Positions 6,800-52,963 of a stretch of 64,000 bases of DNA are shown here, piece after piece; positions within the stretch are counted from its first letter, which is position 1, and each line of letters opens with the position of its first letter. The stretch spans positions 14,463-78,462 of the forward strand of contig JBGQLV010000004.1 in NCBI GenBank assembly GCA_041500225.1, in the 5' to 3' direction. Source of the DNA: Thermodesulfovibrionia bacterium (GTDB lineage Bacteria; Nitrospirota; Thermodesulfovibrionia; Thermodesulfovibrionales; SM23-35). The position numbers and the translations under genes were made by a program. The notes below the pieces were generated by a model. It worked only from the letters and a program-made list of their open reading frames with translations. It was not told the origin of the DNA and searched no databases.

Positions 6800-9700
6800 A
6801 TGACTATATTACACCTTTATCGAAAACCAGCCCTTTCGCTATCAAAGAGGAATGAACTGTTGTCAGTTGCACAGCAGAAGGTCTCTCCTGATATAAAGGA
6901 CATTGAAACAGAATACTGCTTTAATATCGAGACAATAACTCCTTTTACAGATGAGGAGCTTAATATAGTTCGATGGCTTTTAGCAGAGACATTCGAGCCG
7001 GAGAATTTTTCGGAGAGGAGTTTTTTGACTCGTCACTCGTCACTCGTCACTCGTCACTGTCTTTTGGAGGTTGGCCCGAGGATGAACTTTACAACAGCAT
7101 GGTCAACAAATGCAGTATCGGTATGCCATTCTTGTGGCCTCAAAAAAATTACACGAATAGAGCGTTCAAGAAGATATAAATTAATATTTAATCAGCAAAT
7201 ACCCCCCCTCAATCCCCCCCCTGCTAAGGGGGGGCGAAGGAGGGGTAGTTCATCTTCCCTTCAACCTTCAACCTTCAACCTTCAACTTTTTTTAGAACTT
7301 ATTCATGACCGGATGACAGAGTGTCCCTATCCGGAAAGCCTTACCACTTTTGAGACATGTAAAAAAGCAGAGCCTGTTTACATTGTTCCACTGATTGAAG
7401 AGGGCAAAGAGGCTCTAAAAAAGATAAACATTGAAATGGGACTTGGGTTGGATGACTGGGATATAGATTATTATTACAACCTCTTTGTTAATGGCATAGG
7501 ACGTAATCCTACTAATGTAGAGTGTTTTGATCTCGGTCAATCAAACAGCGAGCATTCAAGACACTGGTTCTTTAAAGGAAGATTAATTATTGATGGGGAG
7601 AAAATGCCCTATACACTGATGGATATAATCAAGCATCCCTTGAAGACTAACCATGGTAACAGTATCATTGCCTTTAAAGATAACTCAAGCGCAATTCATG
7701 GTTATGAGATATTTACCATAATACCTGAGCATCCAGACAGGCCTTCACGTTTCCAAGGTTCAAGACTCGATTATAATATTATCTTTACAGCCGAAACACA
7801 CAATTTCCCTACTGGTGTAGCACCTTTCCCTGGAGCGGAGACAGGCACAGGAGGAAGGATAAGAGATGTTCAGGCCACAGGCAGAGGTAGCTTAGTTATA
7901 GCAGGTACTGCTGCATACTGTGTAGGTAATCTGCGAATACCCGGCTATCCTTTACCATGGGACGATCTGTCATTTGAATATCCACCAAACCTTGCTTCTC
8001 CGCTTCAGATAGAGATAGAGGCAAGCAACGGCGCATCTGATTATGGCAATAAATTTGGTGAGCCAGTAATACAGGGTTTTACAAGGTCTTTTGGTTTGAG
8101 ATTACCGGATGGTGAAAGACGGGAATGGGTTAAGCCAATAATGTTTACTGGCGGTGTAGGACAGATAGATAACAGACATATCGAAAAGGGGAAACCTGAA
8201 AAAGGAATGTTCGTAGTCAAGATTGGCGGTCCTGCATATCGAATTGGCATTGGAGGAGGAGCAGCATCGAGTATGATACAGGGAGAAAACATTGCCGAAC
8301 TTGATTTCAGTGCCGTGCAGCGTGGCGATGCTGAGATGGAACAGAAGGTAAACAGGGTCATCAGGGCGTGCGTAGAAATGAGTGATAAAAATCCTATCAT
8401 TAGCATCCATGATCAGGGCGCTGGCGGAAACTGTAATGTTGTGAAGGAAATCGTTTATCCTGCTGGTGCAAAGATAGAAATAAGAAATATCCAGCTTGGC
8501 GATAACACGCTATCAGTACTTGAGATATGGGGTGCAGAATATCAGGAACAGAATGCATTACTAATACAACCTGACAGGAGTGAAGAATTTTTTGCCCTCT
8601 GTAAAAGGGAGAAAGTTCCTTGTTCCTTTATCGGAGAAATTACAGGCGACGGTTATATCGTGCTTCATGATGAGACAGATGGCAGTACATCTGTAAATCT
8701 TGATCTTTCAAAGGTTCTTGGTGAGATGCCACAGAAAATTTTTCATATTGACCGAATAAAACCTCCTCTTGAGCCCTTAAGATTACCAGAGGGTATAACA
8801 TTAAAAGATGCTCTCGAAAGAGTGCTCCGTCTTATATCAGTAAGCTCTAAAAGATTCCTTACCAATAAAGTAGACAGATCTGTTACCGGTCTAATTGCAC
8901 AGCAGCAATGTGTCGGCCCTCTTCAGCTTACATTATCTAATGCGGCGGTTGTAAGTCAAAGTCATTTTGGATTAACAGGTGCAGCAATAGCTATCGGCGA
9001 ACAACCAATAAAGGGACTGATAAGCCCACAGGCAATGGCTCGAATGAGTGTTGGTGAAGCACTAACAAATATTATGTGGGCAAAAGTGAGCGCCGTCGAA
9101 GATATCAAATGTTCAGGGAACTGGATGTGGGCAGCAAAGCTTCCCGGCGAAGGCGCCAGGCTTTATGACGCGGCTGTTGCTATGAGTGATTTAATGGTTA
9201 AACTCGGCATTGCCGTTGATGGAGGTAAAGACAGCCTCTCGATGGCTGCCATGGTTCCTGGTGCATCAGGCAAGACCGAAATAGTCAAAGCTCCAGGTGC
9301 CCTTGTTATTTCTGCCTATGCCACATGCCCTGATATTACAAAGGTTATCACGCCTGATATAAAAAAGCCAGGTGAAAGCAGGCTGATTTACATTGATCTC
9401 GGCAATGGGAAATATAGAATAGGTGGCACTGCCTTAGCCCATGTCTACGGACAGGTCGGAAATGAATCTCCCGATCTGGATGACCCTCAGCTTCTCAAAC
9501 GCACCTTTAATGCCATACAGAGATTCATTTCAGAGGACCTGATTATTTCAGGTCATGACAGAAGCGATGGCGGGTTAATAACAACTCTACTTGAAATGGC
9601 ATTTGGGGGAAATTGCGGGATTGAGGTAAATATTAAGTCTTCAACACCCCCTCATCCCCTACTTGGTAAAAATCCCCCCATCCCCCCTTTACTAAAGGGG

Positions 9701-10879
9701 GGTGAGGGGGGATTACAGGAAATGATATTTCCTCTGTTATTCTCAGAAGAGCTTGGAATGGTAATTGAATATCTACCTGAAAATGAAAAAGAAATATTAT
9801 CTACATTCTGTAAAGACAATATTCCTTTCCAAATCATTGGTACTACCTCCTCTGAAAAGAGAATAAAAATAAACATCAATAATGAATTAATTCTTGATGA
9901 AGATATGCGTGTTCTCAGGGCTATCTGGGAAGAAACAAGTTATCAGCTTGACAGGCTTCAGGCAAACCCTGAATGTGTTGATGAAGAAAGGATAGTTAAT
10001 TTTAATAGAAAAGGACCACAATATAGACTGACATTTACACCAGAGAAGACACCTCAGAAGATCCTCGAAAACGATATTAACCCAAAGGTTGCAGTGATCC
10101 GTGAAGAGGGTAGTAACGGTGACCGCGAGATGACTTCTGCCTTTTATCAAGCTGGTTTTGAGGTATGGGATATAACGATGACAGACCTCCTTGAGGACAG
10201 AGCAAATCTTGAAGACTTCAGAGGTATTGCCTTTGTAGGTGGATTCAGTTATGCCGATGTCCTTGATTCAGCTAAAGGATGGGCAGGGGTAATCAGGTTT
10301 AATAAAAGACTCTATGAGCAATTCCAGCGGTTCTATGAAAGGCCTGATACCTTCAGCCTCGGTGTCTGTAATGGGTGCCAGCTTATGGCACTTCTTGGCC
10401 GGATTCCATGGAAGGGGATTTCTGACAAGATTCAACCAAGATACATACAGAATAAATCCGGACGGTTTGAATCAAGGTTTTCAACAGTTCATATCCTGCC
10501 GAGTCCTTCTATAATGCTAAGAGGAATGGAAGGTTCTACTCTTGGTGTATGGGTCGCACATGGTGAGGGAAGGCTCTATTTCCCGGATAAAGAAATAATA
10601 CAGGAAGTTTTTGAGAAGGGCCTTGCACCAATAAGATTTGTTGATGACGGTGGAGAAATTACCGAGACGTATCCATTTAATCCAAATGGCTCTCCTTCAG
10701 GCATAACAGCCCTCTGTTCACCTGATGGGAGGCATCTTGCAATGATGCCCCATCCAGAAAGGACATTTCTAAAATGGCAATGGGCATATATGCCAGAGGA
10801 TTGGAAGAAAACCCTCGAAGTTTCTCCATGGTTAAAAATGTTCCGGAATGCGAGGGAATGGTGTGCGGAAGAAAATTAA
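6800..10879 (+). CDS. purL: Phosphoribosylformylglycinamidine (FGAM) synthase, large single-chain type
   Basis: 1359 aa. SNSEHSRHWFF, TAETHNFPT, GAETGTGGRIRD and a C-terminal glutaminase domain (GVCNGCQLM, HGEG, MPHPER). Colinear with E. coli PurL as I recall it, apart from three insertions. Confidence 0.95.
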   Translation: MTILHLYRKPALSLSKRNELLSVAQQKVSPDIKDIETEYCFNIETITPFTDEELNIVRWLLAETFEPENFSERSFLTRHSSLVTRHCLLEVGPRMNFTTAWSTNAVSVCHSCGLKKITRIERSRRYKLIFNQQIPPLNPPPAKGGRRRGSSSSLQPSTFNLQLFLELIHDRMTECPYPESLTTFETCKKAEPVYIVPLIEEGKEALKKINIEMGLGLDDWDIDYYYNLFVNGIGRNPTNVECFDLGQSNSEHSRHWFFKGRLIIDGEKMPYTLMDIIKHPLKTNHGNSIIAFKDNSSAIHGYEIFTIIPEHPDRPSRFQGSRLDYNIIFTAETHNFPTGVAPFPGAETGTGGRIRDVQATGRGSLVIAGTAAYCVGNLRIPGYPLPWDDLSFEYPPNLASPLQIEIEASNGASDYGNKFGEPVIQGFTRSFGLRLPDGERREWVKPIMFTGGVGQIDNRHIEKGKPEKGMFVVKIGGPAYRIGIGGGAASSMIQGENIAELDFSAVQRGDAEMEQKVNRVIRACVEMSDKNPIISIHDQGAGGNCNVVKEIVYPAGAKIEIRNIQLGDNTLSVLEIWGAEYQEQNALLIQPDRSEEFFALCKREKVPCSFIGEITGDGYIVLHDETDGSTSVNLDLSKVLGEMPQKIFHIDRIKPPLEPLRLPEGITLKDALERVLRLISVSSKRFLTNKVDRSVTGLIAQQQCVGPLQLTLSNAAVVSQSHFGLTGAAIAIGEQPIKGLISPQAMARMSVGEALTNIMWAKVSAVEDIKCSGNWMWAAKLPGEGARLYDAAVAMSDLMVKLGIAVDGGKDSLSMAAMVPGASGKTEIVKAPGALVISAYATCPDITKVITPDIKKPGESRLIYIDLGNGKYRIGGTALAHVYGQVGNESPDLDDPQLLKRTFNAIQRFISEDLIISGHDRSDGGLITTLLEMAFGGNCGIEVNIKSSTPPHPLLGKNPPIPPLLKGGEGGLQEMIFPLLFSEELGMVIEYLPENEKEILSTFCKDNIPFQIIGTTSSEKRIKININNELILDEDMRVLRAIWEETSYQLDRLQANPECVDEERIVNFNRKGPQYRLTFTPEKTPQKILENDINPKVAVIREEGSNGDREMTSAFYQAGFEVWDITMTDLLEDRANLEDFRGIAFVGGFSYADVLDSAKGWAGVIRFNKRLYEQFQRFYERPDTFSLGVCNGCQLMALLGRIPWKGISDKIQPRYIQNKSGRFESRFSTVHILPSPSIMLRGMEGSTLGVWVAHGEGRLYFPDKEIIQEVFEKGLAPIRFVDDGGEITETYPFNPNGSPSGITALCSPDGRHLAMMPHPERTFLKWQWAYMPEDWKKTLEVSPWLKMFRNAREWCAEEN
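7028..7061. repeat. Heptanucleotide tandem repeat (actcgtc x4 plus a degenerate fifth copy) inside purL
   Basis: Direct read: actcgtc actcgtc actcgtc actcgtc actgtc, translated as TRHSSLVTRH. Confidence 0.9.
7202..7285. repeat. GC-rich imperfect palindrome followed by heptamer tandem repeat (ccttcaa x4), in-frame inside purL
   Basis: ccccccctcaatcccccccc tgctaa gggggggcgaaggagggg, then ccttcaa x4. Encodes PPLNPPPAKGGRRRGSSSSLQPSTFNLQ. Confidence 0.85.
9645..9713. repeat. GC-rich palindromic element in-frame inside purL
   Basis: acaccccctcatcccc ... aatcccccccatcccccc tttactaaa ggggggtgagggggg att. Encodes TPPHPLLGKNPPIPPLLKGGEGG. Confidence 0.85.
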
Positions 10880-10882
10880 TTA

Positions 10883-12049
10883 TCAACTTGCCCATAACGC
10901 TTCCACGATATTCATGCGCGACGCCCTGATAGCAGGGAGCACACCCCCGATTAATCCCATTATCAGCGAGAAGGCCAGGGCTTGATAAATGATTTTAAAG
11001 GTTAGAGAAAAGGTAAAGGCAAGTTCGGAAAAAGTCTGAAAGTTTAGTGTTGATACGGTAAATAATTGCAGAAAAGAGGCAAAAAACAAACCAACAGCAC
11101 CTCCAATAAAACTGAGAATCAACGATTCTATGAGAAAAGCTGCTAAAATACTCCTCCTTTGAAAGCCGAGGGCACGCATTGTACCTATTTCGAAAACACG
11201 GTTGGCTACAGCAGAGTACATAGTTATCATGGCGCCTATGATTGCACCGAGAGAGAATATTATTGTGAGGGTCAAGCCGAGGATGCGGAGAAATTTAGCC
11301 ATCATCTCCGACTGTTTTCTGTAATATTCAGGTTCCCTCATTGCTTCCTGTGTCAGACGTGGATCATTCTCTATTCTTGACTTAACCTTTTCAAGTTCAG
11401 ATGGCTCGCGCATTCGAAAGATTACAGACGAATATGCAGGTCTTCTGAAGGCCTGCATCAACTGGTCTACATCTCCCCATATCTCTGAGTTGAAGCTGGT
11501 ATTTCCTGCATCAAACACGCCCACAACAGTCCAGTCTCTCATGGCAAAGCGAAGGGTTTCTCCGAAACCTCCTCCCTGAAACCTTTTCGCAATGCTTGAT
11601 CCTGCAATAATTTCAGATGAACCGGGTCTCGGCATACGTCCCTCAACGAGTTTAACCTGTGGACGGAGATTCATTGAATGTTCCTCAATCCCTCGAATAA
11701 CTACATTGGAAGGTTTATTTGTTCCACGTTTAGGAAGTGCAAATAGAACCACTAATTCTTTTGCAATTAGTCGTTTCCCGTCAGTACCTATGGCGATCTC
11801 GGGCTGTGTTTCGATTATCGAGGCCTGGAGCCTGTCAACTCCGCTCTGTACTTCTGAACCAGCGGCTTTTCTTATTGCGACCACATTCTCATATGATCCG
11901 GTTTCGACAAGTGTCTTCTGCAGCCCCTCAGCAAGCATCAGGACAGCAGCAAACACAAAAACTACCAGCGCCATGCCGGAGGCAGTGAGAAAAGTCGTAA
12001 GCCTGCGTGTAAAGAGATTACGCAGGCTGTATGTGAATGGTATTTTCAT
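10883..12049 (-). CDS. MacB/FtsX-family ABC transporter permease
   Basis: 388 aa. N-terminal TM, a large periplasmic domain, and a C-terminal FtsX-type 3-TM bundle. Confidence 0.8.
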   Translation of the reverse strand: MKIPFTYSLRNLFTRRLTTFLTASGMALVVFVFAAVLMLAEGLQKTLVETGSYENVVAIRKAAGSEVQSGVDRLQASIIETQPEIAIGTDGKRLIAKELVVLFALPKRGTNKPSNVVIRGIEEHSMNLRPQVKLVEGRMPRPGSSEIIAGSSIAKRFQGGGFGETLRFAMRDWTVVGVFDAGNTSFNSEIWGDVDQLMQAFRRPAYSSVIFRMREPSELEKVKSRIENDPRLTQEAMREPEYYRKQSEMMAKFLRILGLTLTIIFSLGAIIGAMITMYSAVANRVFEIGTMRALGFQRRSILAAFLIESLILSFIGGAVGLFFASFLQLFTVSTLNFQTFSELAFTFSLTFKIIYQALAFSLIMGLIGGVLPAIRASRMNIVEALWAS

Positions 12050-13207
12050 TTACCCTATTCTCCTGAGTCCATCAGCAATACGAATCTTAATGGATCGCCA
12101 GGTTGGAAAAATTGCCGCAACGAACGCCACAATGAGTGCAGCAATAATATCAAGGTAAATGGTTTCGCGTTCTACATTGAATACAGGGAAAAAGGTACTC
12201 AGTTCTTTACTGAAGATTTTGGCTGCCGGGAATGTCAAAAAAATACCGAGGGCAGCACCTGTCATTGTGATGATTAAGGACTCGCCGAATATCAGGCCGG
12301 AAATATGAAAAGCACCAAATCCAAGTGTCTTGAAAATTGCATATTCACCGATTCGCTCGCGGACAGTCATAGCCATGGTATTTGCTACAACAGCCATAAT
12401 AATAAAAATAATTACAAATGAGACAAGTTGTATCGCAATAACAATCGCTTCTGTCATGGAAATGAAGCTTAACTGGAAGGCCTTTTCGGTCTCTGTCAAT
12501 GTTTCTGCAAGGGAATTCTTAAAGGTTTTATCAATCCTGAGAGAGACATCTGCTGCGATATTCGGGTTGTTTATTTCGATCATATACCAGCCGACTTGGC
12601 CAGCCCATGACCGTCCGGCCTTTTTCAATGCCTCGTTAAGATAATCCCAGTGAAAGAAAAAAGCGGTTTCATCCACTGTTTCATCTCTTCCCTTATAAAT
12701 AGCACGCAATACAAAATCCCAGTTGCCAGGGAAAATAGTCCCTTTTAATGTAATGGTATCGCCAATCTTCCAGCCGAACCTTTTAGCAAGTTTTCGTCCT
12801 GCAGTTGCAGCCTTACGGTCGCGGAGAACTGCTGCCATCTGGTCGGGCGGAATTATGATCTCAGGATACATTTGAAGATATGTTTTTGGTTCAACTGCGT
12901 AGTTTGCAAAGAAATTTTTTTCATCAATATAAATACCGCCGAACCATGTGCCGTAAGAAACCCTCTTCACACCTTCAACCTGCCTGATCTTTTCCTTATA
13001 AGAAAGAGGAAGCGGAAAAACAAGAGATACAGCATTTCTTGTTACGAGACGGCTTGCAGAAGATGCTTCTACCCCTGCATACCATGCGCTGATCACTGTT
13101 CTCAGAAGTCCGAATGCAAGTATAGCAATAGTAACACCTAAAATAGTAAGGAATGTCCGTAGCTTATGACGGAATGCATTTTTAAAAATCAGTTTGAGGA
13201 TGTGCAT
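12050..13207 (-). CDS. MacB/FtsX-family ABC transporter permease
   Basis: 385 aa. Same architecture as its neighbour and directly abutting it. Confidence 0.8.
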   Translation of the reverse strand: MHILKLIFKNAFRHKLRTFLTILGVTIAILAFGLLRTVISAWYAGVEASSASRLVTRNAVSLVFPLPLSYKEKIRQVEGVKRVSYGTWFGGIYIDEKNFFANYAVEPKTYLQMYPEIIIPPDQMAAVLRDRKAATAGRKLAKRFGWKIGDTITLKGTIFPGNWDFVLRAIYKGRDETVDETAFFFHWDYLNEALKKAGRSWAGQVGWYMIEINNPNIAADVSLRIDKTFKNSLAETLTETEKAFQLSFISMTEAIVIAIQLVSFVIIFIIMAVVANTMAMTVRERIGEYAIFKTLGFGAFHISGLIFGESLIITMTGAALGIFLTFPAAKIFSKELSTFFPVFNVERETIYLDIIAALIVAFVAAIFPTWRSIKIRIADGLRRIG

Positions 13208-13883
13208 TCAAAACGCCTTTGTCGAGATGTTTGATAACATGAGCCTTTTTTGCAGCCCGTGGGTCATGTGTCACCATAATAATGGTCTTCCCGAGTTCAT
13301 GAACGAGTCGCTCCATGAGCTCCAGCACATCATTTGCAGAAACCCTGTCAAGATCACCAGTCGGCTCATCCGCCACCAGTATTGTTGGATCGGTAACAAC
13401 AGCACGGGCAATGGCAACACGCTGCTGTTGGCCGCCAGAGAGCTGTCCAGGGTAATGATCCATTCGATCCTCAAGGTTTACAACTCTAAGGGCCATCTCC
13501 ACATGGGATCTGCGCTCTCTTTTTGATAGTCCTGACAGGAGCAGAGGGAGTTTAACATTTTCAAAAGCCGTAAGCACAGGAATCAGGTTGTAAAACTGGA
13601 AAATAAAGCCTACATTGTTGGCACGCCACTCAGCGAGCCCGGTTTCAGTGAGAGAAGTAATTTCTACGTTGCCGATTTTGATTGTACCGCTGTCTGTCTT
13701 ATCAATACCTGCGATAAGGTTTAACAGAGTAGTTTTACCTGAGCCCGAAGGGCCCATCAGTGCAAGAAATTCCCCTTCTTCAATATCTAAAGATATATTA
13801 TTCAAAACAGGTAGAATCTGGTTACCCCTGCGGTAAGACTTATACAGGTTCCTTATCTCGACAATATGAGGTTTATTGGCCAT
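13182..13883 (-). CDS. ABC transporter ATP-binding protein (MacB/LolD-like)
   Basis: 233 aa. [38 protein letters not shown]. Confidence 0.9.
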
Positions 13884-15101
13884 CTATTTTTCGGCGACTT
13901 TGATCCTTGAACCATTCTTTATTTTCTCGAGGGGTTTCAATACAACTCTGTCCCCTGCCTTCACACCATTTAAGACTTCGATCATATCGCCGAGTTTTGT
14001 GCCCACAGTTATTGGTGTTTCTACGGCCCTGTTTTCTTTTATTAGAAAGACAATATTTTTCCCGTCACGTGTAACCAAAGCTGTTTGGTAGATTGCAGTA
14101 CGCGGTTTCTGCTCATGACTTTTAACTTCCCTTGACAGGAAAGCCACTTTTACGCTCATCTCAGGTAATATTCGGCTGTCTTTATCAATAATCCGCACCT
14201 TTACCATTACTGTTGCTTTGGTTCTGTCTGCTGTAGGTACAATCATGTGAACTTCTCCCCTAAAACGCGAATCAGGCAATGCATCGAGTTGAATCTCACA
14301 GGGTTGTCCTATCTTAGCTAAATGGATATTCGATTCTGAAACATCCACTTCTGCCTGGAGGGAGTTCATATCTGCAATAGTAACCACAGCCGCCTTTGCA
14401 TTAGCAGCAGCTCCTATCGGGGTGACAATGTCACCAATATCGGCATTTTTTGTCAACACTACAGCATCGAAAGGGGCTTGGATCAAGGTATATCCCAGAG
14501 CTACTTTGGCTCCCTGAAGTGCAGCTGAAGCAGCTTTAACCGCTGCTTCAGCTGCTTCAGCTGCTGCAATTGCCTTCTTGTAACGTGCTTCTGAGGTATC
14601 ATATTCTGCCTGTGCTACAAACCCCTGTGTCAGTAAATCTTTATTACGATTAAAAGAAAGGGTGGCATCATGTAATTCAGCTTTCGCCTGTTCCATGTTG
14701 TAATGGGCTGCTTTTAAGTTAGCTTCTGCCTGATCCTTGGAAGCTGCAACATCCTCGCTTTCCAGTTTGGCAATCACCTGTCCTGCTTTCACCTTACTCC
14801 CCTCTTCAACTGATAGTGATACGAGGCGGCCGGTGACCTTTGAAGCCACTGCGGCCTTACGCTGGGCTACAACATAGCCGCTTGCGTTCAATAAAGTAAA
14901 AGTCTGTGATGGATATAATTGTGTGACACTGGCAACCTCAACCTCAACTGCAGGCGTTAAAACCCCTTTAACGTAAAGGAATCCCATTAATAAAATAAAA
15001 AAAATCGCCCCCACCATGTAACCCAATTTCCTTCGCCTTAATGGGCTATAAGTTGATTCAGATTTTTCTATCTTTAATCTCGAAAGATCTTCGTTCGCCA
15101 T
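13884..15101 (-). CDS. Efflux transporter periplasmic adaptor (HlyD/MacA membrane-fusion family)
   Basis: 405 aa. N-terminal TM, a long Ala-rich coiled-coil hairpin, and barrel-sandwich motifs. First gene of a 4-gene efflux operon. Confidence 0.8.
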   Translation of the reverse strand: MANEDLSRLKIEKSESTYSPLRRRKLGYMVGAIFFILLMGFLYVKGVLTPAVEVEVASVTQLYPSQTFTLLNASGYVVAQRKAAVASKVTGRLVSLSVEEGSKVKAGQVIAKLESEDVAASKDQAEANLKAAHYNMEQAKAELHDATLSFNRNKDLLTQGFVAQAEYDTSEARYKKAIAAAEAAEAAVKAASAALQGAKVALGYTLIQAPFDAVVLTKNADIGDIVTPIGAAANAKAAVVTIADMNSLQAEVDVSESNIHLAKIGQPCEIQLDALPDSRFRGEVHMIVPTADRTKATVMVKVRIIDKDSRILPEMSVKVAFLSREVKSHEQKPRTAIYQTALVTRDGKNIVFLIKENRAVETPITVGTKLGDMIEVLNGVKAGDRVVLKPLEKIKNGSRIKVAEK

Positions 15102-23973: not shown

Positions 23974-24020
23974 TTATAAATCTTAACAGAAGATTCCTTA
24001 ATTTTTCAAGGTTACTTAAG

Positions 24021-24056
24021 TTTCTACAGTTTCTTGTGTTTCTACAGTTTCTTGTG
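24021..24056. repeat. Perfect 18-nt tandem duplication (tttctacagtttcttgtg x2) in the divergent intergenic region
   Basis: Direct read. It is followed by aactcaatg/aactcaata at 24070-24087. Confidence 0.9.
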
Positions 24057-24094
24057 TTATAACTCCATAAACTCAATGAACTCAATAAACTAAC

Positions 24095-35587: not shown

Positions 35588-35730
35588 CTATTGAGGTTCT
35601 TGCAAAAGTCTCAAATGGGCACCCTCCCCAACCCCTCCCGTCAAGGGAGGGGCTTATTTATCAACCCTTTCCCCTGGTGGGAGAGGGCAAGGGTGAGGGG
35701 GTTGATGGAGTTTTGCAAGAGCCTCTATTA
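35588..35730. repeat. ~140-bp MITE-like element with GC-rich hairpin core
   Basis: Arms ctattgaggttcttgcaaaagtc / gagttttgcaagagcctctatta. Core cccctccc gtcaa gggagggg and ccctttcccctggtgggagagggcaagggtgaggggg. Confidence 0.8.
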
Positions 35731-49151: not shown

Positions 49152-51482
49152 ATGGAAAATGGTGTGCAATTTACAGATGAACTAATCGGTGAGCTATCTG
49201 AACTGTGCGGGATACTTTTAGAATACTGGGATATTTTTGGTAAAAAGCATATAACTTCTGTTGAGACCAAAAAGGCGATACTCAGTGCGATGAAACTGAA
49301 GATTAATTCAGCCGGGGATATAATTAAAGAAATTAATGAACGAAAGTGGAAACCATGGAAAAACTTTATCGAACCTGTGCATGTCATATCAGTAAATGAC
49401 CAGCCTGTGACAGTCCCTGTTTATATACCCATCAAAAAGGATGAAGAAGCTAAACTTATAATTTCTTGGTCTATAGAAGATGAAAATGAGCAAAAAGCTG
49501 AGTTTATACTTGCATGGAACGCCATAACAATCTCGGAAATACAATGGATAGATGGGATAAGATTTATAAAGATAAACCTCTCGGATGCGGTATGCCGAGC
49601 TATTGGTTATTATGTAATTCATGTAGAGTGCAAACATCCTGAAAACATCTTTCCAGGCGGAGTAAACCTTTTACAAAAAACATCTAAGGTTATATTAACT
49701 CCTGATACCTGTTATTTACCACCTGAACTACAGAAAGGAAGGACATGGGGCCTTTCCGTTAATCTTTACTCAATCTGTTCGGCACGAAACTGGGGCGTTG
49801 GTGATTTTACTGACCTTAAGAAAATTGCCAGGTGGGTTGCTGATTTGAAGGGTGGCTTTATAGGAATCAATCCGCTACATGCAATTCCAAACACAAAACC
49901 CTTCGGGATCAGTCCGTATTCTCCTGTAAGCAGGCTTTATAAAAATTTTATTTACCTTGATGTAGAAAGCATACCTGAAGTAGCAGAATCAGAAGATGTC
50001 AGGGCAATCATGACATCTGAAGATTTTAATAAAGAATTGAATAAACTCAGAAAAGGAAACTTAGTTGATTACGAAAAGGTTGCATTAGTGAAAGAAAGAA
50101 TTCTAAGGAATGCTTTTGTTCTCTTTTATAAAAAACACTTCACACGAAATACTCGTCGTAGCAGGAATTTTAAGAAATACATATCAGAAGAAGGTACTGC
50201 CCTCGAATATTTTGCAATATATATGGCACTTGCATCACGATACGGGGTAACAGGGATGCGGAGATACAGAGAAACAGAAAAACAGAACAGTTGTGAGATC
50301 CCCGAATCTCCGAATCTACGGGTTTCCCTTTTACTGAATTGGCAGGAGTGGCCTGAAGAATATCGCAAATTATCAGGTAAAGCGGTTCAGATATTCAAGA
50401 AAGCAAATAAAAAGGAAGTACTCTTTTATAAATATATCCAGTGGCTTATTGATAATCAACTCAAGGAAGTTTCCGAAGAGGCCATAAATCACGGAATGGC
50501 TGTAGGGCTTTACCATGACCTTGCTATTGGTTCTCTTGGGGGGGGAAGCGATGCCTGGAGTTATCAGGATGTCATTGCAAGAGAAGTAGATGTTGGAGCC
50601 CCTCCTGACGATTTTAGTCCGCATGGCCAGAACTGGGGATTCCCTCCACTGATTCCGGAGAAATTGGAGGAGACAGGATATGAATTGTTTATCCAGACAA
50701 TAAGAAAAAATATGAAATACGGTGGTGCCCTTAGGATAGACCACGCCCTCGGCATGTTCAGGCTTTTCTGGATACCCCATGGCATGTTCCCCAAAGAAGG
50801 TGCTTATATAAGCTATCCATCAGAGGATCTTCTCAGAATTATTGCTTTGGAAAGTATTCGGAACAGAACTATAGTGATTGCTGAAGATCTGGGCACGATC
50901 GGTGAAAATGTTAGAGAAACGCTTCAGAGATTTCATATGCTTTCTTACAAGCTTTTTTATTTTGAGAGGAATTATCCTGACCCGTCATTTGTTCCACCTG
51001 ATAAGTACCCTGATAAGGCTTTGTGTGCCTTAACAACTCACGACCTGCCAACAATATACGGTTACTGGGCAGAGCAAGATTTAGAGATAAAAAAACAACT
51101 CGGTATATATTGTGACGACACTCTATGGCAGGAACAGGTCAATGAAAGAGAAAGGGACAAGAGACTTATTCTCTCTGCCCTTAAGTCTCTGGGAATTATC
51201 TCTGATGAGTACCTGTCAGAGCCGAAAATGATTCCTAAGATGACACCTGAACTATGCCTTGCTATATACCATTATCTTGCACTTACACCTTGTAAACTGT
51301 TGCTGGTCAGCCTCGATGATATCATTGGTACACTGAATCAGCAAAACATGCCCGGCACAGTCGGTTCATATCCCAATTGGCTGCAAAAAACACCGCTCAC
51401 TCTTGAGGGAATGGTTTCAGACAAACGATTTATTACTCTTTCTGAGATGTTTAAAAATATTTACAAAGGAGTTCATAAGTAA
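49152..51482 (+). CDS. malQ: 4-alpha-glucanotransferase (GH77 amylomaltase) with N-terminal extension
   Basis: 776 aa. GVGDFTDL, NPLH, GISPYSP, LRIDHALG, AEDLG, THD. These are GH77 catalytic blocks. Confidence 0.9.
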   Translation: MENGVQFTDELIGELSELCGILLEYWDIFGKKHITSVETKKAILSAMKLKINSAGDIIKEINERKWKPWKNFIEPVHVISVNDQPVTVPVYIPIKKDEEAKLIISWSIEDENEQKAEFILAWNAITISEIQWIDGIRFIKINLSDAVCRAIGYYVIHVECKHPENIFPGGVNLLQKTSKVILTPDTCYLPPELQKGRTWGLSVNLYSICSARNWGVGDFTDLKKIARWVADLKGGFIGINPLHAIPNTKPFGISPYSPVSRLYKNFIYLDVESIPEVAESEDVRAIMTSEDFNKELNKLRKGNLVDYEKVALVKERILRNAFVLFYKKHFTRNTRRSRNFKKYISEEGTALEYFAIYMALASRYGVTGMRRYRETEKQNSCEIPESPNLRVSLLLNWQEWPEEYRKLSGKAVQIFKKANKKEVLFYKYIQWLIDNQLKEVSEEAINHGMAVGLYHDLAIGSLGGGSDAWSYQDVIAREVDVGAPPDDFSPHGQNWGFPPLIPEKLEETGYELFIQTIRKNMKYGGALRIDHALGMFRLFWIPHGMFPKEGAYISYPSEDLLRIIALESIRNRTIVIAEDLGTIGENVRETLQRFHMLSYKLFYFERNYPDPSFVPPDKYPDKALCALTTHDLPTIYGYWAEQDLEIKKQLGIYCDDTLWQEQVNERERDKRLILSALKSLGIISDEYLSEPKMIPKMTPELCLAIYHYLALTPCKLLLVSLDDIIGTLNQQNMPGTVGSYPNWLQKTPLTLEGMVSDKRFITLSEMFKNIYKGVHK

Positions 51483-51487
51483 GGCGT

Positions 51488-51661
51488 CATTATTGAAAAA
51501 TCTCCCCTCGCCCCTCTCGGTTGCGAGTCGTACCGACTTTGCTAAAGAGGGGTAAATTCCCTCCCTTTGGTAAAGGGAGGTGAGGAGGGATTTTATAATC
51601 AATGTCTTCATACTTATGAGCTTATTAGTAACTTGTAATTCCCTGTGGTCTTGCCGCAGGG
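51488..51661. repeat. GC-rich palindromic repeat cluster between malQ and glgC
   Basis: agtcg tac cgact; cctcccttt ggta aagggagg tgaggaggg; and ccctgtgg tcttg ccgcaggg (51641-51661). Confidence 0.75.
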
Positions 51662-51739: not shown

Positions 51740-52963
51740 ATGGCACATCCAAAGGTTCTTGCATTTGTTCTTGCAGGAGGCAAGGGCGAGAGACTTTTTC
51801 CGTTGACGGCATTTCGTTCAAAACCGTCAGTCCCATTTGGCGGCAGGTACAGGATAGTGGATTTTGTCCTGAGCAATCTTGTGAATTCACACATTTATTC
51901 TATTTATCTTCTTGTGCAATACAAGTCCCAGTCACTTATTGAGCATGTGAGAAAGAACTGGGTTTTATCTTCTATTATCAAAGACCATTTTGTGGCTGTG
52001 GTTCCACCACAGATGCGGATGGGGCCCGAATGGTTTCAGGGCACGGCTGATGCGATTTTTCAGAATGTTAACCTCATCCGCCAGCACAATCCAAAGCTTG
52101 TTATAATTTTCGGAGCAGATCATATATATAGAATGGATATTCGTCAAATGATAGATTTCCATCTTGAAAATGATGCCTTTGTTACTGTTGCTGCAAGACC
52201 TGTTCCCATCGAGCAGGCATCTTCTTTTGGAGTTATTATGACAGACAGCGAAAAACGAATTGTCGGATTTCAGGAAAAACCAAAAAAGCCTACCTCGAGA
52301 CCTGATGACCCAGGTCGTGCGTATGTTTCCATGGGGAATTATATATTTAACAGAGATGTGCTTCTGGGAGCACTGGCAAAGGCACAAAGAAAAAAACAGC
52401 ATGATTTTGGTGCTCATGTAATACCAGATCTGGTTGAAACAGGTAAGGTATTTGCCTATGATTTTGCAACAAATATCATCCCCGGGACCATGCCTTATGA
52501 GGAGGGAGGTTACTGGAGAGATGTAGGTACAATATCTGCCTTTTTTGAGGCCCATATGGACATGTTAGGTTATTCACCTCTATTTGAACTTGACAACAAA
52601 TTGTGGCCTATCCATCCATCCGGTTATGAGGGATCCGCTACAAAGATATTGAGAGGCGATATAAGAAACAGTATAATTGCTGAAGGAACGGTTCTTCATA
52701 AGGCAAAGATACGCAATTCTATAATCCGTAGTGGTGTGACAATTGAGGACGATGTCAGTGTGGAAGACTGTATAATTATGGATGACGTATTGATTAAAAA
52801 AGGGTGTAGATTAAAAAGGGTAATTGTGGATAAGCTGAATGTGATAGATGAAGGCGAACAGATTGGTATTGACCCTGAAAAAGACCGTTTCCGTTGTCAC
52901 ATAGACTCCTCAGGAATTGCTATAATTCCGAGAGGTGGCAAGCTGGTAAGGACCTCAAGATAA
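51740..52963 (+). CDS. glgC: Glucose-1-phosphate adenylyltransferase
   Basis: 407 aa. LAGGKGERLFPLT..RSKPSVPFGGRYRIVDF, and a C-terminal left-handed beta-helix region. Confidence 0.9.
   Translation: MAHPKVLAFVLAGGKGERLFPLTAFRSKPSVPFGGRYRIVDFVLSNLVNSHIYSIYLLVQYKSQSLIEHVRKNWVLSSIIKDHFVAVVPPQMRMGPEWFQGTADAIFQNVNLIRQHNPKLVIIFGADHIYRMDIRQMIDFHLENDAFVTVAARPVPIEQASSFGVIMTDSEKRIVGFQEKPKKPTSRPDDPGRAYVSMGNYIFNRDVLLGALAKAQRKKQHDFGAHVIPDLVETGKVFAYDFATNIIPGTMPYEEGGYWRDVGTISAFFEAHMDMLGYSPLFELDNKLWPIHPSGYEGSATKILRGDIRNSIIAEGTVLHKAKIRNSIIRSGVTIEDDVSVEDCIIMDDVLIKKGCRLKRVIVDKLNVIDEGEQIGIDPEKDRFRCHIDSSGIAIIPRGGKLVRTSR

Follow-up and report, generated by a model that had tools for sequence, protein, structure and literature searches.

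A dispersed hairpin repeat and a heptanucleotide array lie in frame in purL of a Thermodesulfovibrionia bacterium and resemble intragenic selfish DNA

Rickettsia palindromic elements (RPEs) are dispersed palindromes that lie in frame in unrelated housekeeping genes and also between genes (Ogata et al. 2000, as relayed in PMC10969869). The parts of that account drawn on here describe them as about 100-150 bp long, confined to Rickettsia and encoding a conserved peptide per family, the extra peptide being compatible with protein function (PMC10969869). Repetitive extragenic palindromes (REPs) and REPINs, which are associated with RAYT tyrosine transposases, are GC-rich imperfect palindromes of 20-40 bp with a conserved bulge (PMC3733652; PMC3116915). 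Some REP copies are intragenic and encode 20-30 extra residues, and dimers and clusters occur (Di Nocera et al., PMC3733652). [quoted passage not shown] Here we describe a 64,000-nt stretch of DNA from a Thermodesulfovibrionia bacterium (the window), in which the purL gene carries, in frame, a GC-rich palindrome followed by a heptanucleotide array (site 2). By analogy with the described systems, the best reading of this feature is selfish DNA, RPE-like or intragenic-REP-like, in an inter-domain loop of the enzyme.

In many bacteria, no long simple repeat is commoner than the heptamer, and cyanobacteria reportedly carry heptanucleotide tandem repeats (STRR/SDR) that Elhai and colleagues are said to have described in 2008. 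Beggiatoaceae have TAACTGA heptanucleotide repeats, a unit with stop codons in all three forward frames (PMC4679880).

The purL open reading frame (ORF) is open throughout and stays intact across the repeats (Table 1). A first-pass annotation of the window had reported a GC-rich palindrome plus heptamer array in this frame, and both the bases and the frame agree with it. The DNA is also distinct from its low-GC surroundings, as that annotation had remarked, with a local GC of 0.65 against 0.41 for the whole window. The arms found by an inverted-repeat finder (7205-7221 and 7229-7245) were 82% complementary, and the segment was predicted to fold as RNA with -34.3 kcal/mol (z = -3.2). The pattern C6-N1-5-C6-N4-10-G6 was found 3 times in the window, always inside purL, compared with 0.00 times in 100 dinucleotide-preserving shuffles. 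Two other identities for the hairpin were considered and set aside. Rfam (E up to 1) returned just a chance snoRNA match elsewhere in purL, and no terminator-like site was found.

Table 1. Host gene and repeat features, in coordinates of the window unless residues are given.
Feature	Position	Strand	Sequence, encoded peptide or evidence
purL, host gene	6800..10879	+	Large single-chain FGAM synthase (FGAR amidotransferase), 1359 aa; ORF list and translation
Site 1, heptanucleotide array ACTCGTC x4.4	7028..7058	+	Encodes TRHSSLVTRH; Tandem Repeats Finder (TRF), 100% matches; loop of N-terminal domain
Site 2, decayed B-type GC-rich palindromic repeat	7200..7245	+	Encoded peptide PPLNPPPAKGGRRRG
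Site 2, left arm	7202-7221	+	CCCCCCCTCAATCCCCCCCC
Site 2, palindrome loop	7222-7227	+	TGCTAA
Site 2, right arm	7228-7245	+	GGGGGGGCGAAGGAGGGG
Site 2, 12-nt spacer from palindrome to heptamer array	7246..7257	+	TAGTTCATCTTC
Site 2, heptanucleotide array CCTTCAA x4.1	7258..7286	+	TRF, 100% matches, score 58
Site 2, example peptide for the loop stretch	residues 131-160		GSSSSLQPSTFNLQLFLELIHDR
Site 3	9645..9716	+	Encoded peptide TPPHPLLGKNPPIPPLLKGGEGG; nhmmer E = 9.7e-15
Site 3, orphan left arm of another copy	9645-9667	+	Precedes the intact A-type palindrome
Site 3, intact A-type palindrome	9668-9716	+	AATCCCCCCATCCCCCCTTTACTAAAGGGGGGTGAGGGGGGATT; RNA fold -33.6 kcal/mol
Intergenic MITE-like element, 121 nt	35598..35718		Terminal inverted repeats CTTGCAAAAGTCTC ... 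GGAGTTTTGCAAG
Intergenic decayed, apparently nested A-like palindromic element	51493..51597		nhmmer 51559-51594, E = 2.3e-3

The identical protein matched the Pfam domains FGAR-AT_N, linker, AIRS_C and GATase_5. The window PurL, though bacterial, scored much closer to human PFAS (PDB 9n9w, 1450 bits) than to Salmonella PurL (1t3t, 906 bits). Its nearest proteins came from metagenome-assembled genomes of Nitrospirota/Thermodesulfovibrionales at 100%, 99% and 91% identity, followed by proteins at 72-82%. Other assemblies, obtained independently, carry the same site-2 sequence (P0001-P0003, with 99-100% identity, as well as L081), and the repeats are not an assembly artefact.

In the window PurL, residues 131-167 (37 aa) separate F130 of the RYKLIF strand from I168-HDRM. 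RYK and HDRM align at about 121 and 139-142 in Salmonella 1t3t, and in human 9n9w RRY occupies 123-125 and LHDRM starts at 145. We drew on 80 orthologous purL loci from species-representative genomes and on the 91%-identity relative L081; 81 PurL sequences were aligned, and the related purL loci searched for repeats amounted to 1.44 Mb. The RYK-to-HDRM segment is about 37-40 aa here versus about 17-19 aa in Salmonella and human and 17-21 aa in distant orthologues (L039, L041, L045, L070, L078 and others). The first-pass figures of about 36 against about 16 residues were thus essentially right. In distant orthologues of higher GC the segment is plain, 17 residues long and patterned as R(I/L)ESxxxLDxExLxxF, and therefore the extra residues are lineage-specific. 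The proposal that they are repeat-derived had been coupled to the question of whether repeat-free orthologues share them; across the 81 sequences, distant ones have only the plain segment.

The AlphaFold (AF2) model of residues 1-330 showed a confident N-terminal domain (pLDDT 70-89), with a predicted strand at 117-130, coil at 131-160 (pLDDT <50 for 138-157) and helix at 161-168. The CCTTCAA array is read across all three frames as LQPSTFNLQ and continues into this predicted helix. Because AF2 places the helix at 161-168, the last codons of the array appear to encode the start of a native helix. The low-confidence coil and published domain descriptions of Salmonella PurL point to a surface loop. 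The tolerated surface loop of the first-pass annotation therefore stands as a modelled placement rather than as one taken from a solved structure of the window protein. A fold search with the AF2 model re-found PurL structures alone and added nothing on loop exposure.

A hidden Markov model (HMM) of the hairpin family was built from 21 aligned copies, and the site-2 palindrome matched it with E = 2.3e-5 (nhmmer). The family core consists of C6-7, a short spacer, C6-7, TT(T)NNN(A)AA, G6-7, a spacer and G6-7, forming a stem-loop of about 44 nt in which asymmetric 2+3-nt spacers give a bulge. Two subtypes were distinguished: A, AAT-C6-N2-3-C6-TTTNNNAAA-G6-N2-3-G6-ATT, to which site 3 belongs, and B, C7-TCAAT-C7-TTNNNAA-G7-ATTGA-G6, of which site 2 is a decayed copy. 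The elements end in (A/T)AAT...ATT(T/A), as seen in the 21 aligned copies and in the flank statistics of 85 metagenome copies. Sequence logic applied to these two data sets indicates that the conserved hairpin core is stop-free in all six frames and encodes a Pro-rich then Gly-rich peptide in either orientation.

Searching the 81 loci with nhmmer yielded 73 copies. Of these, 54 belong to purL, a further 12 are read in frame within long ORFs other than purL, and 7 are outside ORFs or at contig ends. The other in-frame hosts identified by Pfam were HemC (three times), LpxB, RnfC, CysS, Tgt, Eco57I-like methyltransferases and a TPR protein, and B-like copies were also found in hemC, lpxB, cysS and a methyltransferase gene. 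The expectation of further copies, some of them in ORFs, was thereby borne out across these related loci. When metagenome contigs were scanned for the strict A pattern, at least 120 stretches matched. Among the matches listed, 85 copies were examined, on contigs with a GC of 0.38-0.71; 28 lay in frame in ORFs of at least 200 aa, 45 in short ORFs that are probably spurious, and 12 in no ORF. The core measured 43-45 nt in 85/85 of them. Pfam assigned known families to 15 of 20 long host ORFs, including MetH-like, GH57, TatD, MurD, EngA, FabF (two copies), AroC, TsaD, RtcA and molybdopterin oxidoreductase. Because the metagenome copies sit in many genes and in intergenic DNA, the family is widespread, both genic and intergenic, rather than purL-specific. 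A purL-specific element, which 19/21 strict matches in purL would have suggested, was ruled out by 0/85 metagenome copies in a real purL. An element of coding DNA only was ruled out by the intergenic copy in the window (51493-51597) and by the metagenome copies in no ORF or in short ORFs. Viral spread was also considered and set aside, and the A-type pattern was present in only 4 of 2.9 million IMG/VR viral contigs (L203-L206) and the B-type in none.

The resemblance that had been noted between site 2 and intergenic palindromes of the window was recovered for the 51493-51597 element, which is A-like; the 35598-35718 element is of a different type and holds two C-type GC-rich palindromes (PSPSRGEGKGGGE-coding type). 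The former starts about 10 nt past the stop codon of the ORF at 49152-51482 and is followed by a same-strand ORF at 51740-52963. Nested copies, with one element within the loop of another, were found in L005, L057, L021 and the hemC of L003.

Compared with RPEs by description, the window family is likewise palindromic, in frame and read through (80/81 loci; HemC, Tgt, CysS, MurD, AroC), and also intergenic. It differs in having a core of about 44-50 nt made of C6/G6 blocks and in its hosts, which are free-living uncultured Nitrospirota/Thermodesulfovibrionia together with many metagenomic contigs. By size (44-50 nt, against 100-150 nt for RPEs) and by host phylum, the element falls outside the RPE family. 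The analogy to RPEs drawn in the first-pass annotation survives, together with intragenic REPs, as the closest one. The window family shares with REPs a small GC-rich imperfect palindrome with a bulge, and the lack of a GTAG or CGTC head places it outside the REPs. No RAYT was found next to copies in a small sample (ORFs between the paired copies of L109 and L127). REPs lie predominantly outside genes; the genic fraction is far higher than theirs in the purL-centred sample (66/73 copies in ORFs), and in the unbiased metagenome sample 57/85 copies are in short ORFs or in no ORF. The window system works like RPEs and intragenic REPs, yet by size and host for the former and by its missing head for the latter it belongs to neither. 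No description of the hairpin family, of its motif peptides or of such Nitrospirota repeats was found in the searchable literature, the coverage of which is incomplete.

Like MITEs, the window elements would be non-autonomous, and they are hairpin-forming and nested; direct repeats flank the C-type insert where a filled site can be set against an empty one, and its intergenic copy has terminal inverted repeats. On the other hand, the A and B types do not reach the length of typical MITEs, and neither a target-site duplication nor a parent insertion sequence is definable for them. The heptamer arrays resemble STRR and TAACTGA repeats in being short arrays of 7-nt units, with many unit families per genome and ties to small hairpin elements. 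Both window arrays consist of head-to-tail 7-nt units in at least 3 copies (TRF x4.1 and x4.4). Whereas STRR and TAACTGA repeats are overwhelmingly intergenic, both window arrays lie in frame in purL; such arrays are placed in essential genes, are stop-free and of fixed length, and are conserved at the DNA level across deep lineages.

The history of site 2 was followed across lineages. The DNA from RY to HDRM is exactly 126 nt in the window, L081, L064 and L003, always laid out as palindrome, 12 nt and CCTTCAA x4. The position of the 12-nt spacer is kept in all four, with 6-10/12 identity between lineages. The orthologous copies are in differing states of decay. The L064 copy is a perfect palindrome, CCCCCCCTCAATCCCCCCCTTAGTAAGGGGGGGATTGAGGGGGG, with an 18-bp stem (-49.5 kcal/mol, z = -6.5), and the outer stems are mutated in the window and L003 without compensatory changes. 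Because one 126-nt layout is found in four lineages, with L064 perfect and the outer stems of the window and L003 decayed, the palindrome is a single old insertion, common to at least four lineages and decaying in the window lineage, rather than a recent one. Other lineages combine the parts differently: in L006, L009 and L057 a CCTTCAA array that has decayed is preceded upstream by an A-type copy, L037 and L056 have the array alone, L001 a 4-unit variant array, and further lineages other repeat families. The palindrome and the array are thus separable components, because the array occurs at site 2 in lineages that lack the palindrome, and its wider distribution suggests that it is the older of the two. 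The first-pass view of an inserted palindrome plus array therefore holds for the palindrome, but not simply for the array, which is present without it and encodes the predicted helix start.

The purL gene is under purifying selection, and loop 2 is relaxed in the short term, because the ratio of nonsynonymous to synonymous substitution rates (dN/dS) of the core is about 0.17 against L081 (16 nonsynonymous and 30 synonymous changes), while the changes that the same pair shows in loop 2 are 4 nonsynonymous against 0 synonymous.

Three major length-variable hot spots were seen in the PurL alignment, at window residues ~78-90, ~131-158 and ~949-975, with rarer ones at ~662-668, ~823-828 and in the linker at ~1085-1108. 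The hot-spot loops translate repeat DNA. Their fillers include the C6/G6 hairpin peptide NPPxPPxxKGGxGG; a second GC-rich palindrome, the C-type, PPTHPSPSRGEGKGGGE; inverted arrays of 7- or 8-nt units (RVQGFKDSRVQ...SLESLNPRxLE; KKIRSSE...LLNFSTSQ); a VIARSETTKQS...IASPSARND-coding sequence; and simple heptamer arrays (HSSLVTRH, LQPSTFN, SEVRSQK). The three PurL loops of this clade have been colonised repeatedly by different repeat families. Hairpin copies reach 164 per Mb in purL versus about 17 per Mb in the flanks, about ten-fold. Perfect heptamer arrays of at least 3 copies reach 121 per Mb in purL (40/51) versus 9.9 per Mb outside it (11 arrays, 8 of them in long ORFs), a twelve-fold difference. 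Heptamer arrays were found within 60 nt of 9/85 A-type metagenome copies compared with 26/1505 random control positions, and because of this difference the palindrome-plus-heptamer architecture is recurrent above chance.

A second repeat hot spot is hemC (porphobilinogen deaminase; L003 3861-4994), about 6 kb upstream of purL. The HemC loop after REDPRDA contains heptamer arrays in L004 and L008, an A-type copy in L014, nested A and B copies in L003 and a short native loop in L023.

Over most of purL, the DNA of the window and that of L081 share 98-99% identity, and the two differ in three places. At site 1, L081 has a C-type palindrome flanked by a 10-nt direct repeat, AGTTTTTTGA, relative to the window, and three fewer ACTCGTC units. 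In its linker, near window position 10041, it carries a 66-nt C-type insertion; both inserts have the C-type core also present in the 35598-35718 element. At site 3, an AAAAGTC heptamer array replaces the A-type copy of the window. Sister elements are therefore present or absent between genomes about 99% identical. Repeat mobility appears to be ongoing, because C-type inserts are present in such a close relative and nested copies occur elsewhere. The orphan left arm in front of the intact A-type palindrome at site 3 suggests nested or partly deleted elements. The site-1 segment is 39 nt in 9/9 extracted lineages; five of these share 87-97% identity in it, against 42-55% at flanking third-codon positions. 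Elsewhere the units are variant but homogenised, ACGCATC or ACCCATC, which is the signature of concerted evolution.

Two further observations were made in the window. A purL tract of about 500 nt (9590-10123) has 24-39 mismatches per 150 nt against L081, compared with 0-7 in the rest of the gene. Such excess divergence points to a recombinational mosaic, with a repeat hot spot at either end and site 3 within it. Adjacent tandem repeats were also found at 24019-24091, an 18-nt unit GTTTCTACAGTTTCTTGT x2.2 followed by a 9-nt unit AACTCAATA x3.4.

Taken together, we consider it likely that non-autonomous hairpin repeats and slippage-born heptamer arrays gather where an in-frame, stop-free insertion is harmless, and that they are translated as a disordered Pro/Gly-rich loop. 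According to this model, a hairpin of about 44 nt would have entered the connector between the N-terminal PurS-like and linker domains in an ancestor of several Thermodesulfovibrionia lineages. The adjacent, older CCTTCAA x4 array would most plausibly have been made and homogenised by replication slippage. Both components would be transcribed and translated, adding about 21 residues (IPPLNPPPAKGGRRRGSSSSLQP...), which would form a disordered loop and leave the enzyme undisturbed; the added peptide itself would be neutral. Selection would leave just those insertions that keep the frame and lack stops, and the hairpin core, being stop-free and Pro-rich/Gly-rich in either orientation, would be typical loop material. 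The hairpins may have spread by hairpin-recognising non-autonomous transposition, or by copy-paste through some enzyme.

Several findings weigh against the model of harmless, in-frame selfish repeats. Between the window, L064 and L003 the CCTTCAA array agrees at 28/28 positions, against just 44-57% identity at flanking third-codon positions. The palindrome is 80-89% identical between lineages with the inner C7/G7 stem intact in all four, and CCC/GGG codons are retained in a genome of 41% GC. The array and the inner stem are thus preserved far past neutral expectation, although purely neutral junk should decay. Recent recombinational import of the loop was considered as the cause of this conservation and found unsupported, since third-codon positions within 150 nt are saturated. 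Moreover, tolerance alone does not account for the purL enrichment in hairpins and heptamer arrays. No mobilising enzyme was found among the ORFs between paired copies in the small sample of L109 and L127, which comprised a tRNA methyltransferase, a lipid-kinase-like protein and unknowns, without a Y1 transposase domain. No clean target-site duplication was found for the A and B types, for which no clean empty site was available; the flanks of the 85 metagenome copies are only A/T-biased. The argument for translation of the insert is frame conservation only. Overall, the feature is real, was rightly noticed and was largely rightly interpreted, with a modest unexplained part. For the arrays, the selfish-repeat model may itself offer a way of conservation. 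Slippage in steps of three units would homogenise them, and since each base of the unit serves, in one copy or another, as the first or second of a codon, protein-level selection could plausibly freeze the heptamer unit.

The same conservation, with flanking synonymous sites saturated, would also be expected if the hairpin and/or the array were a functional nucleic-acid element kept by selection. One candidate role is that of an mRNA structure slowing ribosomes at the N-terminal/linker domain boundary to help co-translational folding; others are a control of mRNA stability or a protein-binding heptad site. The insertion hot spots do lie at domain junctions, and expanded site-2 segments are mostly hairpin-forming whatever their sequence family, with z < -2 in 20/33 segments of at least 90 nt versus 3/20 unexpanded ones; the frequent hairpin-heptamer neighbours fit as well. 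However, the outer stem decays uncompensated in the window and L003, in many lineages the insert is missing or lacks structure, and unrelated families swap content at the same site. The 4 nonsynonymous loop changes in the closest relative, and the same elements in unrelated genes and intergenic DNA, also argue against it. Moreover, concerted evolution plus protein-level selection can conserve such DNA too, each heptamer position being non-synonymous in some copy. We therefore regard a functional element as a minor possibility.

A slender possibility is that hairpin and array form a recurrent maintained module, either with arrays as preferred landing sites or with the pair selected as an intragenic nucleic-acid signal. 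If true, this would explain why arrays and inner stem are frozen at the DNA level despite saturated synonymous sites, the approximately six-fold co-occurrence over chance and the repeated use of the same PurL and HemC loops. As a landing site, the module would mean targeted insertion into in-frame arrays at domain junctions; as a signal, it could be, for example, an inter-domain translational pause.

Far less probable is a phase-variable contingency switch, in which slippage of the array by one unit, or of the C7/C8/G7 runs, toggles the purL frame. A 7-nt unit and 7-8-nt homopolymer runs in coding DNA are classic slippage substrates, and site 1 differs by exactly three units between the window and L081. 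This sole observed length change preserves the frame. Frame-shifting length variants, which would mark a contingency locus among close relatives, were not seen: the site-2 copy number is 4 in the window, L081, L064 and L003 (with the 4-unit variant in L001), purL is in frame in 80/81 loci, and the PurL proteins of P0001-P0003 are all 1359 aa. As a housekeeping gene, purL would have no obvious gain from switching. The L023 purL (9986-10531 / 10410-14270) is frameshift-split right after nested palindromes with C7/G7 runs. Because its contig naming looks like that of a long-read metagenome assembly, in which homopolymer errors are expected, this is probably a sequencing error, although a pseudogene or a slippage variant is also possible.

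An ordinary lineage-specific loop that is repetitive by appearance, without any repeat insertion, is hardly credible: PurL loop lengths do vary among taxa and part of the heptamer-encoded peptide aligns with the native helix start, but the palindrome matches the family HMM with near-identical copies in other genes and metagenomes, its C6..C6..G6 pattern is not expected in the window by chance, and L064 has a perfect 18-bp stem at the orthologous site.

The repeats affect annotation, as they inflate and fragment gene calls and spawn spurious PPxPPxxKGGxGG hypothetical proteins in metagenomes, and their homopolymer runs are likely frameshift traps in long-read assemblies. The favoured selfish-repeat model would extend selfish DNA within coding genes beyond Rickettsia RPEs and intragenic REPs, to anaerobes that are free-living and uncultured and to a much smaller element. 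The loci offer a natural experiment. At least five repeat families have supplied dozens of insertions, independent and in frame, to the same three loops of a single essential enzyme. With sites filled in some close relatives and empty in others, loop gain, loop permissiveness and triple-frame concerted array evolution can be studied. In-frame repeat DNA in tolerant loops of housekeeping enzymes is a wider habit of this group, of which purL is one example.

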